A DNA stretch of 13,057 nt from a virus (taxonomy: Duplodnaviria > Heunggongvirae > Uroviricota > Caudoviricetes). Of this stretch, positions 70-4,722 are shown piece after piece; position 1 is the stretch's first letter; every line of letters begins with the position of its first letter. The stretch is taken from the IMG/VR virus record IMGVR_UViG_2778261569_000004, one strand, 5' to 3'. The notes under the pieces were generated by a model. That model searched no databases. It was not told where the DNA came from and worked only from the letters and a program-made list of their open reading frames with translations. A program made the position numbers and the translations under genes.

Positions 70-201
70 TTCTTAAAACCTCCTCAAACGCATTCTGACG
101 CATTTTTCATTCTCGCTGCTTATCGGTATACCTTGCACGTGCTTACCTCACCACAGAGCGATTGTGATGCCTTAAAAGCGATTTATTGAAGTGATATTTG
201 C

Positions 202-819: not shown

Positions 820-2255
820 CAGAATCCTCCTTTCTTCTTGGACTGCGGTTCCTCGCGTTCACGTCGGCGCATTTCAGCAGACTGTTGGTCTGTGTCATAA
901 ATAGCGCCATTTGCCTGAATGCAATACACCGTGCCGGTATTGCCATGACGATTGAGACGAAGGATTAGTTCGGTTTCACCAGGTGGAACACTGTCATCAA
1001 AAGCACCTTCACGATGGATCCCCACCCAATAATCGCAATCCTGTTCAATCTGCCCTGTATCTCGTGAGTCACTTGGTAATGGGCGTTTATTGGTTCGGCT
1101 TTCCAGTGCGCGGTTAAGTTGCGTCAGAAGCACAACAACGCAATCAAGCTCTTTGGCAAGGTTCTTCAGTCCTTTGGTGATCATGCCGTAAGCAAGGTCG
1201 TTGCGATCGGCCTTCTCAGCGGTCATTAGTGTCAGGTAATCGACCAGAATCATGCCAACACATCCTTTTTCTCGCTTGATTCGACGGCTTTCGCTGACGA
1301 TTTGAGCCAGAGATAATCCCGGCGTGTCGTCGATGTAAAGCATGTCGATTTCACTCAAGCGATTGGCTGTTTCGATCGCCCTGTTGAAGTCACCATCGTA
1401 ATCACCCTGATAGCCGTCATCGGCGTCATTTGTCGCCGGAAGGTAAAAAATATTCGGGTTAACACCAGACTTCTGCCCTACCAGTTTTTCCAGTATCTGA
1501 TCACCTGGCATTTCAAGGCTGAACATCAGAGCGGGCTTTTTCTCATGCACTGCGCAATTGATTGCCATCTGGCTGTATAGCGTCGTTTTCCCCATCTTAG
1601 GGCGAGCGCCAATGACAAACAGAGAGCCTTTCACCAGACCTTTCGGTGACAGCATCCTGTCCAGCGATGGGATCCCTGTGCTCATTCCCCGTTGTTCGCC
1701 TGATGGGTCAAATCGCTTCTCAAGGTCGCTAACCCAGTCTTCCATGACCTCGCCAAATGAGCGAAGGCCGCGACGCGATCCGGTTTTTGCATGGTCTGTC
1801 AGTTGCGTGAAAATCGCCTGAATAGCTTCGTACTTCTGCGTCGCAGTCATTCCGTTGCGGGAATAGAGCAATTCCGTCGCTTCAGTCATGCGGTTGATGG
1901 CGTAGCGTTCCATTGCGGTTTCGCGAACCTGCATTGCATAGGCAACGATGTTTGCGGCGCTCGGCGTGTTCTTTGCGATCTCAGCGATATAAGCAAAACC
2001 GCCAACAGACGCCGTTAACGATTTACGCTCCAGTTCATCGAAAAGCGTCAGGCCATCTACTGGCTTTTGCTCCCGGTGCATTCTGGTTATTTCTTCGAAA
2101 AGGATTTTGTGTGGTCGGCTGTAAAATGAATCGGGCTTCAGCATCGCCAGAACTTTCTGGACGCGCTCACTGCTGTCATCATCCAGAAGCAATCCACCAA
2201 TCACCGCCTGCTCTGCCTCGATGCTATGGGGCGGCGCATAAAAATTATCGGTCAT
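819..2255 (-). CDS. Replicative DNA helicase, DnaB family (P22 gene 12-type)
   Basis: N-terminal motif PHSIEAEQAVIGGLLLDD typical of the DnaB N-terminal domain; Walker A GARPKMGKTT; Walker B-like ILVDYLTLM; overall RecA-like helicase layout. Start placed at ATG 2255 ([11 protein letters not shown]) with a GAGGGTGA Shine-Dalgarno upstream, rather than the GTG at 2270 used by the ORF track. Confidence 0.9.
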   Translation of the reverse strand: MTDNFYAPPHSIEAEQAVIGGLLLDDDSSERVQKVLAMLKPDSFYSRPHKILFEEITRMHREQKPVDGLTLFDELERKSLTASVGGFAYIAEIAKNTPSAANIVAYAMQVRETAMERYAINRMTEATELLYSRNGMTATQKYEAIQAIFTQLTDHAKTGSRRGLRSFGEVMEDWVSDLEKRFDPSGEQRGMSTGIPSLDRMLSPKGLVKGSLFVIGARPKMGKTTLYSQMAINCAVHEKKPALMFSLEMPGDQILEKLVGQKSGVNPNIFYLPATNDADDGYQGDYDGDFNRAIETANRLSEIDMLYIDDTPGLSLAQIVSESRRIKREKGCVGMILVDYLTLMTAEKADRNDLAYGMITKGLKNLAKELDCVVVLLTQLNRALESRTNKRPLPSDSRDTGQIEQDCDYWVGIHREGAFDDSVPPGETELILRLNRHGNTGTVYCIQANGAIYDTDQQSAEMRRREREEPQSKKKGGF

Positions 2256-3144
2256 CGTGTTCACCCTCACGAACTTTCAGGTAGGTATTGTCGTTAAGCA
2301 GGAAATCAAATCCCTTTTTGTGCCAGACGGTTCCGCGCTGATGGTTTGGGCGCTCTTCGAACATCCATCGGCAATTTTCGCCTACGTAGCTCAAATAATT
2401 TCTCCAGTCCTGCATCGTGAACCCATGCCCGTCAAGCTGGCGGGTTATCACTCCGGCTTTGCGCCAGAACGTTCGGATCTGGTTTTTACGCTTGTCATTC
2501 AGTGCGCGGATTTTTGGCGCTTCAGGAAGGATTTCGTGGTAAGCATCGACAACATCCTGACAGCTGACGGAAGGTTTTTTCTTGTCAGACTTTTTGTCTG
2601 CTGTGGCACTCTCTAATACGTCAGTATTAGAGATAATATTATTATATTCTTTATCTGTGGTAATTTGCTGGTAATCTGCTGGTACAGTATTGCTTGCAGG
2701 CATTGGTATTGCTGGCTTTGAGGTGGTAATTTGCTGGTAATCTGCTGGTACAAAATTTGACTGATAATCGTCATATTTCTCTACCGAGAAAACTGAGAAT
2801 TTACCGTGTGAAACCCAGTCAATCATGCCGAGTTTTTTGAACTTTCTAAGCAGGTACTGAACGCGATCTGGTTTGAGTCCTGTTTCAAACGCCAGAGAGT
2901 TTCTACCGCCAAGTAGCTTCCCTCTGCCTACCAGAATTTCTCCTGCGTCAGTCATTACATACTCAGGCGTATGCTTTGCTTTGAGGATTAAGTGAACCCA
3001 CAGATGCGCAGCTTCTGCGTCCTTGTAAAACGGCACATCCATAATTTTACGGTGCAGCAAGGCATACCCCTTACCGCTGCTTTGATGCGGTTGTTGTAGC
3101 CTTCTGGCCTCTCTGGCTTCGGCTAGATTAGATATGTTACTCAT
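2245..3144 (-). CDS. Replication initiator protein (lambda O / P22 gene 18 analogue) with origin iterons inside its coding sequence
   Basis: Sits between cII and the helicase as O does in lambdoid phages. Contains a direct-repeat iteron array plus an adjacent AT-rich tract (see repeat feature). AAGGAG Shine-Dalgarno before ATG 3144. The 3' end overlaps the helicase start by 11 nt. The protein is not obviously lambda-O-like by eye, so the family assignment rests on position and the iterons. Confidence 0.7.
2657..2753. repeat. Origin-of-replication iteron array (ori) inside the O-like gene
   Basis: Two perfect 30-bp direct repeats GTGGTAATTTGCTGGTAATCTGCTGGTACA at 2657-2686 and 2724-2753. Each holds two approximately 11-bp subunits GGTAAT(T/C)TGCTGG, with a degenerate copy GGTATTGCTGG at 2705-2716. 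An AT-rich tract (about 2615-2655) lies downstream in the O reading direction, as at ori-lambda. The repeats encode a duplicated [10 protein letters not shown] peptide in the initiator. Confidence 0.7.
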
Positions 3145-3283
3145 GACCTTTCTCCTTCTGCATCAGCTTCACTTTTTCCAACTCAGCCCGGAATCGACAA
3201 GGCTGCTTGAAGCTGGACAGGAAGCGATCACGTAGTATGTGTTTGTGAATTTTGTCCTGGTAAGGACTGAGTTGTTTTGTCAT
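3137..3283 (-). CDS. Putative small protein (48 aa) between cII and the initiator gene
   Basis: ATG at 3283..3281 with an AGGAG Shine-Dalgarno 7 nt upstream; translation [48 protein letters not shown]; stop overlaps the initiator start. Below the ORF-track size cut-off and unsupported by homology. Confidence 0.25.
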
Positions 3284-3317
3284 AATTACTCCTGTGGATT
3301 GATCCAGTCTTTCTACA

Positions 3318-3596
3318 TCAGGCCTCGAAGAATTCGCCGTTCTTCGGGGCTTTTTCTTTTGTCAGGATTCTGGCTACTTTCTTAGCCAGTTCCGCCAACT
3401 CCTCGTCTTCAACACCCCATTCAAGAACAGCCAGAAGCATTCCCATTTTGGGGATGAAGCTATCTTTCCATCGCGAAATTTGCGATTCATTAATCCCTAA
3501 CGCGTCGGCAACCTTTCGCTGACCACGTACAGCAATTCGATTCAGGATGTTGCTTGTAATTGCATTCGCTTTCTTGCGAGTACTTGTAAGTTGCAT
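3318..3596 (-). CDS. cII: CII transcriptional activator (lysogeny establishment)
   Basis: Recognised similarity to lambda CII, including the near-identical block SQISRWK...[13 protein letters not shown]. The translation-initiation region TAAGGAAATACTTACATATG matches the classic lambda cII ribosome-binding site, so the start is ATG 3596, not the upstream start in the ORF track. Confidence 0.85.
3323..3360 (+). terminator. Rho-independent terminator on the strand antisense to cII (oop-like terminator)
   Basis: Stem CCTCGAAGAA/TTCTTCGGGG (3323-3332 / 3340-3349, one G-U pair), 7-nt loop, then CTTTTTCTTTT (3350-3360). It lies on the plus strand inside the 3' end of minus-strand cII, the geometry of the lambda oop RNA terminator. 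Confidence 0.55.
3550..3563 (+). promoter_or_regulatory. CII-binding site TTGC-N6-TTGC (PRE-like establishment promoter -35 region)
   Basis: TTGCTTGTAATTGC on the plus strand inside the cII N-terminal codons, oriented to drive transcription antisense through cro towards cI, as lambda PRE does. The -10 element is not confidently identified. Confidence 0.5.
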
Positions 3597-3655
3597 ATGT
3601 AAGTATTTCCTTAACAAATAAGAAGTTATGCGCATCAAATTATGCGCGTTGTATT

Positions 3656-3698
3656 CCCGCATTTCGGCGGGAATGATGACCATGACTGTTAAAGAGCG
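3656..3698 (-). promoter_or_regulatory. nutR site (boxA plus boxB hairpin)
   Basis: On the minus strand just after the cro stop: boxA CGCTCTTTAACA (plus 3687-3698, reverse complement), then boxB hairpin CCCGC-CGAAAT-GCGGG (plus 3656-3671). The boxB sequence is identical to the one at nutL. Confidence 0.6.
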
Positions 3699-3704
3699 GT
3701 GTTA

Positions 3705-3899
3705 CTATTTGTTTTTCTTGTTGCTTGGGAAAGGACGAACTTCCTCTCCAATCACACTGCCATCAGGCTTTACCGTAACCATGATGTTACGGCCTGCCAG
3801 AATGGCCTTGCTGATAGCGCACTGGATTACACCAAAGTCACTGGCTGCTTTAGCCTGTCCATGGATTTTGGCGTAATCGGCAAGTGTCATTCGAATCAT
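3705..3899 (-). CDS. cro: Cro repressor
   Basis: Recognised similarity to lambda Cro (TLADYA..GQ.K.A.D.GV.Q.AI.KAI.AGR.I.....DGSV..EEV.PFPSNKK). Start placed at ATG 3899 with a GGAGAG Shine-Dalgarno 5 nt upstream. Divergent from cI across the operator region. Confidence 0.85.
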
Positions 3900-3929
3900 A
3901 TGCACTCTCCGTTATTAACCATGAACAAA

Positions 3930-4005: not shown

Positions 4006-4722
4006 ATGGAAAATAAAAAATCACTGACGACAGAACAGCTCGAAGACGCTAAGCGGCTTAAGGCTTTGTATGAGTCAAAAAAGAAAGAATTGGGAATAAC
4101 CCAATACTCAATCGCTGATGAACTGGGTATCACCCAAGGAGCGGTAGGGCATTATCTTAATGGCAGAAACGCGCTAAACGTTGAGGTCGCATCTGGTTTT
4201 GCACGTTTGTTGCAAGTCTCAATTGCTGATTTTAGCCAGTCAATTGCTGCCAAGGTTGCAGAACAGGCAGAAAGCCTTAAGAGCGATGCCAACGTAAGGT
4301 ATGCAGGGGAATACAGAGCAGGAAAGAGGTATCCGGTGTTAAGCAGTATCCAGGCTGGCTCGTGGTGTGAAGCATGCGAACCATACACCATTAAAGACAT
4401 AGATGTTTGGCTTGAGTCTGACGCGCATATTCAAGGTAATGCGTTCTGGCTTAAAGTGGAAGGTGATTCAATGACGGCACCGGTTGGGTTAAGCATTCCA
4501 GAGGGAACATTCGTTCTTTTCGATACCGGAAGGGAGGCGATCAACGGCAGCTTGGTCATAGCAAAACTTTCTGACTCTAACGAAGCAACATTCAAGAAGC
4601 TGATAATCGACGGCGGAAATAAATACCTCAAGGGACTTAATCCTGCATGGCCTCTCGTGCCAATCAATGGAAACTGCAAGATTATAGGCGTTGCAATTGA
4701 GACAAAACTAAGGCTGGTTTGA
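4006..4722 (+). CDS. cI: CI repressor (HTH DNA-binding domain plus LexA/S24-type autocleavage domain)
   Basis: Recognised similarity to lambda CI: N-terminal LTxEQLEDAKRLKALYE.KK.ELG..Q.S.AD..G and C-terminal FWL.VEGDSMTAP ... ATFKKLI (Ser/Lys dyad). Divergent from cro. Confidence 0.9.
   Translation: MENKKSLTTEQLEDAKRLKALYESKKKELGITQYSIADELGITQGAVGHYLNGRNALNVEVASGFARLLQVSIADFSQSIAAKVAEQAESLKSDANVRYAGEYRAGKRYPVLSSIQAGSWCEACEPYTIKDIDVWLESDAHIQGNAFWLKVEGDSMTAPVGLSIPEGTFVLFDTGREAINGSLVIAKLSDSNEATFKKLIIDGGNKYLKGLNPAWPLVPINGNCKIIGVAIETKLRLV

Follow-up and report, generated by a model that had tools for sequence, protein, structure and literature searches.

A putative pO–oop–tO antisense unit opposite the 3′ end of cII in the immunity region of a P22/HK620-type lambdoid phage

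We analyzed a phage DNA stretch of 13,057 nt (the window, by which we mean this whole stretch) and found that positions 3258–3362 of its plus strand most probably, with a likelihood of about 0.87, constitute a pO–oop–tO unit, antisense to cII, in a lambdoid phage whose cII gene is of the P22/HK620 type. The window represents the immunity/replication region of such a phage in reverse orientation; its relevant features are listed in Table 1. The element itself is already known and widespread, and the finding is correct but ordinary. It shows a classical regulatory unit that was correctly recognised from the sequence alone.

Table 1. Positions of the immunity and replication genes and of the elements assigned to the oop unit; strands refer to the window as presented.
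Feature	Position	Strand	Details and basis
cI	4006–4722	+	
cro	3705–3905	−	
pRE (CII-activated)	3573–3612	+	homology; HK620 annotation via 96.7%-identical alignment
cII (P22 C1-like, 92 aa)	3318–3596	−	translation; PF05269
T-rich terminator tail TTTCTTTTGT	3353–3362	+	opposite strand encodes the Lys-rich TKEK of CII
tO terminator hairpin	3320–3352	+	arms 3320–3333 and 3339–3352; loop 3334–3338
Predicted oop-type antisense RNA, 63–66 nt	3294–3359	+	alignments to lambda, P22, HK620 and BTP1
Possible 5′ stem-loop I (GUGGA...UCUAC)	3294–3316	+	MFE fold; weakly supported
LexA-box-like CTGT-N8-CCAG	3292–3307	+	spans the oop start; read from sequence
pO extended −10, TGtCATAAT	3278–3286	+	identical to the lambda pO −10 block
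pO −35 hexamer, TGGTAA	3258–3263	+	3/6 matches to TTGACA; 17-bp spacer to the −10
DUF2740 gene, 48 aa (P22 orf48 / HK620 hkaW)	3137–3283	−	between cII and the replication genes
O-like gene	2245–3144	−	
DnaB-like helicase gene	819–2270	−	

The gene in which the terminator is embedded is a full-length member of the Phage_CII family (Pfam PF05269, E 1e-42), with its stop codon at 3318–3320. Its 92-aa start at 3596 is common to the HK620 and P22 annotations and gives a protein that matches the full Pfam CII model. In PV189406, the closest record, cII is called as a 121-aa ORF from an upstream ATG at 3683 (window 3318–3683, minus strand), and this longer version passes through the nutR/tR1 region. 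The closest records come from the E. coli phages vB_EcoP_phi367 and phi296 (genus Oslovirus, EHEC host), which are 99.7–99.8% identical over 601 bp, while the identity of HK620 to the window is 96.7%. On the other side of the predicted RNA, the Shine–Dalgarno sequence AGGAG of the DUF2740 gene (3289–3293) adjoins the oop +1, and the start codon of this gene lies inside the pO −10, where CAT at 3281–3283 is its reverse complement. Several RefSeq and pharokka-annotated records label the 48-aa protein as a “tail protein”, which looks like a propagated misannotation. A plus-strand ORF of 48 aa at 3239–3385 was rejected as a gene, since this mechanical ORF runs over two real genes. The oop terminator is located upstream of pRE on the same strand.

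The first-pass annotation, made from the letters of the window, had claimed a strong plus-strand intrinsic terminator at 3323–3360, placed within the last codons of minus-strand cII. Both parts of this claim were confirmed: the stem spans 3320–3352 and the tail runs to 3362, with a folding energy of −20 kcal/mol, and the surrounding gene at 3318–3596 is indeed the PF05269 gene. A consensus terminator scan gave a plus-strand stem of 14 pairs, six of them G-C, closed by a 5-nt loop, and ranked this hairpin first among the 26 terminator candidates of the window. The segment 3316–3364 folds on the plus strand at −20.0 kcal/mol (z −4.73), and none of 200 dinucleotide shuffles folded as well. Within cII the hairpin covers codons 82–92, which are the last 11, together with the stop codon. 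The minus-strand copy reaches only −12.6 kcal/mol (z −2.7) and has no T tail, so that the tO signal is strand specific; the weaker fold arises because three plus-strand G-U pairs become C-A mismatches. A bidirectional terminator at 3320–3352 was rejected because the minus strand carries no T tail. A stricter count, which demanded a hairpin of −15 kcal/mol or lower abutting a tail with at least seven T in nine positions, returned two sites in the window, with tO as the best; 100 dinucleotide shuffles contained 0.11 such sites on average. After tO, the strongest intrinsic terminator of the window is found at 502–524 on the minus strand; it consists of an 8-bp G+C-rich stem followed by TTTTTATTT (−15.2 kcal/mol) and lies just downstream of an 89-aa ORF (550–819), at the end of the helicase-proximal gene block.

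For the oop promoter, previously expected around 3240–3285 and described as not obvious by eye, homology yielded a candidate at 3258–3286, but a simple promoter scan missed it. Alignment supports the assignment of this segment as pO, the homologue of lambda pO and of the promoter annotated as “oop” in P22. Of the 33 bases of 3276–3308 (TTTGTCATAATTACTCCTGTGGATTGATCCAGT), 30 agree with the lambda segment comprising the pO −10 and the start of oop; the −35 hexamer corresponds in position to TTGAGT of lambda and to TGGTCA, with which the P22 “oop” promoter feature begins. The P22 RefSeq record (NC_002371) furthermore has a promoter and a terminator, each annotated “oop; similar to phage lambda”, at the corresponding sites, where they overlap with orf48 and c1. 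Position 3278 is the sole plus-strand match to TGNTATAAT (at most one mismatch) in the 13-kb window; counted as a motif with at most one mismatch, TGNTATAAT was obtained 11 times in the window versus 11.7 times in shuffles, i.e., at chance level. The simple sigma-70 scan of the window did not list pO because its −35 matches the consensus in fewer than four of six positions. From the chance-level motif count and the missed scan we conclude that the identification of pO rests on homology and position and not on motif statistics.

Conservation of the −10 block is, in addition, confounded by the ribosome binding site and the ATG on the opposite strand and by the role of the block as a mosaic “boundary sequence”. 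Homology switches within 3276–3308, which contains the pO −10, the ribosome binding site and the oop 5′ end, between four replication-module starts. The block coincides with a mosaic joint, and the boundary sequence is called “bsq5” in the Sf6 record. We also noticed a CCTGG (Dcm CCWGG site) at 3256–3260 that overlaps the pO −35 position 3258–3263. Its distance to the −10 is kept in three unrelated N-terminal contexts of the downstream gene (…PYQD…, …KYQE… and …KFQV…), but not in the lambda-O context; this conservation may reflect a constraint at the nucleotide level or a coincidence.

The predicted RNA would begin either at G3294, by homology to the lambda oop +1, or at G3297, by the 5′ end from RNA-seq of P22, and it would end in the U tract at about 3357–3360. 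A length of 63–66 nt follows from these ends, slightly below the 70–90 nt assumed in the first-pass annotation. The P22-derived 5′ end at 3297 is 11 nt away from the −10, which is further than usual. Folding of the whole predicted RNA gave −27.2 kcal/mol (z −5.2). It covers the last 42 nt of cII (3318–3359; codons 80–92 plus the stop codon) and spans the cII–DUF2740 intergenic region 3294–3317. The pair that would form the possible stem-loop I is kept in a GTAGA variant and broken in the GTTGA variant that constitutes the 5′ end in BTP1, and the stem-loop would be absent if the RNA started at 3297.

At the level of RNA families, a covariance model built from lambda/434-type oop alleles (R1) had its best match in the window exactly at 3294–3359 on the plus strand, although the score was no more than 14.8 bits (E roughly 0.085) and the stem was out of register. 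Given this low score, the resemblance to lambda OOP as an RNA is confined to the 5′ end and the general architecture. Rfam at gathering thresholds gave no match in the window and, in a control, none at the own oop of lambda or P22 either, so that its silence in the window is uninformative. At permissive thresholds Rfam returned only chance-level matches in the window. Rfam does not contain an oop family.

Such an RNA has been detected in a relative. RNA-seq of P22-infected Salmonella detected P22C-oop, a 63-nt RNA with the sequence GAUUGAUCCAGUCUUUCUACAUCAGGCCUCAAAACUGUUCCCGCAGUCUUGAGGCUUUUCUUU (PMC13397905). The window and P22 are 87.7% identical over 111 nt; P22 has another loop (6 nt versus 5 nt in the window) and another inner half of the terminator stem, with one A-C mismatch. 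Among the 14 pairs of the hairpin we counted five compensatory double changes, one one-sided change, one pair broken in P22 and seven unchanged pairs. The pairs of the P22/HK620-type stem were listed by script, and the ungapped MAFFT alignment shifts the P22 3′ arm by one base. At the same time the encoded CII tail reads APKNGEF in the window and PQDCGNS in P22 (the longer P22 tail is KEKPQDCGNSFEA). That the pairing is conserved but the peptide changed points to selection on the hairpin. In the lambda/434-type alleles three terminator pairs show double changes.

The unit is common. The 111-bp unit matches 196 phage records and is present in 1037 of 5426 complete E. coli genomes, which is about a fifth. 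Among the records that we inspected, only P22 and some HK phages with the lambda-type allele carry an oop feature; it is lacking in HK620, in the nearest Stx-type phages and in the rows checked for E. coli genomes. Because oop is under-annotated and absent from Rfam, the collected alleles could justify building a family. When loci were retrieved by the cII protein alone, all 80 of them contained both the hairpin and the extended −10 at a constant distance of 42 nt, and they span four unrelated downstream genes; cII is 98–100% identical in this set, which makes it an oop-independent sample of this allele and not of distant CII genes. The IMG/VR loci that share the pO box contain several oop bodies that cannot be aligned with each other. 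The distinct oop-context alleles with this box all end in a hairpin followed by a T run whose first base lies 57–73 nt after the +1, except for L114, in which the T run is interrupted.

Two loci of the collection show rearrangements. A 227-bp tandem duplication in L130 (4030–4390) carries pO, the oop body and the terminator twice, and the sequence after each terminator does not run on into a normal cII. In L009 (IMGVR_UViG_2778261069_000001, about 129–147, minus strand) the sequence downstream of the pO block changes immediately behind CTCCTGTG at the oop +1 into an apparent IS end and a transposase start (TGAACCGCCCCGGGAATCCTGG...ATGACTAAAAATACTCG), and the insertion replaces the oop body and cII. 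We take the inserted element to be an IS629-like member of the IS3 family.

The mechanism that we propose for the window is as follows. pO, with its weak −35 and its extended −10, would fire against the direction of the pR operon, and RNA polymerase would produce the 63–66-nt RNA from 3294 or 3297 and stop at about 3359 in the cII-embedded terminator. This RNA, which would be perfectly complementary to the pR transcript because both are read from the same DNA, each from a different strand, would pair with it across the final 42 nt of cII and the region between cII and orf48. The duplex would then be cut in an RNase III-dependent manner, the cII message would be degraded, and the resulting drop of CII would shift the decision toward lysis. 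Convergent transcription from pO may also dampen the read-through from pR into the replication genes. We infer the RNase III dependence, the effect on CII and the interference with pR from lambda for the allele in the window. Over-produced lambda OOP lowers cII through RNase III-dependent cutting of the cII–O message (Krinke & Wulff 1987, 1990, cited in PMC2327240 and PMC5869508). Expression of oop from pO abolishes CII-dependent phenotypes in lambda (PMC5869508), and the lambda oop mechanism is also treated in PMC12197685. In lambda, mutation of pO failed to bring back CII activity after SOS induction, and the weight of OOP is modest in some conditions (PMC2327240).

The same promoter could also act on the level of DNA and transcription. 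In this case, the convergent firing of pO would interfere with pR transcription into orf48–O–P and thereby tune replication, with the RNA being secondary. Such an action is compatible with the antisense model. In lambda, pO activity reduces convergent, pR-driven transcription and affects replication, and phages as well as plasmids carrying a pO− mutation are impaired in replication (PMC3985674); in the window, pO lies at the very start of the replication module, with its −10 overlapping the start codon of the first gene. Interference alone, however, needs no terminator placed precisely inside cII and leaves the five compensatory changes that preserve the hairpin unexplained, and the oop RNA does accumulate during P22 infection (PMC13397905). 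We therefore regard interference as the leading activity as rather unlikely. Another option is that P22/HK620-type oop does not act chiefly on cII but mainly on the translation or stability of the orf48–O–P message, or that it is SOS-gated via the LexA-like box; the pO/oop 5′ block may in addition be a recombination joint between immunity and replication modules. The missing long stem-loop I, the overlap of only 42 nt and the 5′ end that abuts the Shine–Dalgarno sequence make a main action on this message possible, and an effect on the downstream message is conceivable because the RNA 5′ end adjoins the DUF2740 ribosome binding sequence. The CTGT-N8-CCAG element matches the 20-bp LexA consensus of the CTGT-N8-ACAG type in 13 of 20 positions, compared to 15 of 20 in lambda, where CTGT-N8-CCAG occurs at the same place at the oop start; a LexA site within lambda oop–pO is cited in PMC5869508. 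Overall, we consider this second option distinctly unlikely.

One may further ask whether a dedicated RNA exists at all. The hairpin could simply be a terminator that insulates pRE, cro and cI from stray antisense transcription out of the replication genes, with neither its own promoter nor a discrete RNA. The poor −35, the chance-level count of the −10 motif in the window and the position of pRE downstream on the same strand would fit such a function, but the −10 block has its homologue in the −10 of lambda pO, the promoter that drives oop, the distance of 42 nt between −10 and hairpin is the same in each of the 80 loci selected by cII, and discrete RNAs are reported for P22 (PMC13397905) and BTP1 (PMC7067206), which renders a mere insulator very improbable. 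We give even less credence, and in fact hardly any, to the idea that the inverted repeat is a by-product of cII coding or an element of the sense mRNA, such as a 3′ stabiliser or a processing site, rather than a plus-strand terminator. The repeat does fold on the minus strand as well, with the energy and z-score given above. However, three of its plus-strand G-U pairs are C-A mismatches there, the T tail exists on the plus strand only, the peptide differs between alleles while the pairing is kept, and the pR transcript must read through this site to reach O and P.

In summary, we favor the reading of window 3258–3362 (plus strand) as a pO–oop–tO unit antisense to cII, and its membership in the lambdoid oop family is supported by position, terminator, promoter homology and identity to a reported RNA. 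The first-pass annotation had proposed an arrangement like that of lambda oop, and this proposal proved right in position and in sequence homology, given the 30 of 33 bases shared with lambda, the P22 annotation and the identity to BTP1. The lambda OOP RNA with pO and tO is reportedly the work of Krinke and Wulff in 1987 and 1990 and of Krinke et al. in 1991. P22 sar and lambda aQ are also short cis-encoded antisense RNAs in the lysis/lysogeny decision (PMC12197685). Their targets (ant and Q), positions and sequences are different, and they show no homology to the element in the window.

Lambda OOP is an antisense RNA with the same layout as the predicted one: its 5′ end lies between cII and the following gene, and an intrinsic terminator within the 3′ part of cII stops its transcription. 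The lambda pO −10, TGTCATAAT, shares bases with the start codon of that following gene, as in the window, and the first ~15 nt of the two RNAs are homologous. Beyond this part, the oop body of the window does not align with that of lambda. Lambda OOP has 77 nt and a long stem-loop I, whereas the RNA of the window, with 63–66 nt, is about 12 nt shorter and lacks this element. It overlaps cII by 42 nt instead of 52–55 nt, the −35 reads TGGTAA instead of TTGAGT, and the gene under pO encodes the 48-aa DUF2740 protein instead of O. The closest counterpart at the RNA level is the OOP(BTP1) ncRNA, which was reported from the transcriptome of the Salmonella prophage BTP1 (Owen et al. 2020, PMC7067206); the supplements of this study do not list its coordinates. 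The BTP1 oop is identical to window 3297–3366, including body, hairpin and tail, and differs by a few substitutions in the promoter and the 5′ end, with TGGCATAAT in place of TGTCATAAT and GTTGA in place of GTGGA. The host and the remaining phage are different from the window. In P22, the oop RNA of which is said to go back to Backhaus and Petri in 1984, the first 30 nt of the RNA equal window 3297–3326 and the U tail is identical as well. P22 shares the features by which the window departs from lambda, namely the shorter RNA, the lack of a long stem-loop I, the 42-nt overlap and the DUF2740 gene. It also has the same order of c1/cII, orf48 and replication genes, the same pO block and an RNA of ~63 nt.
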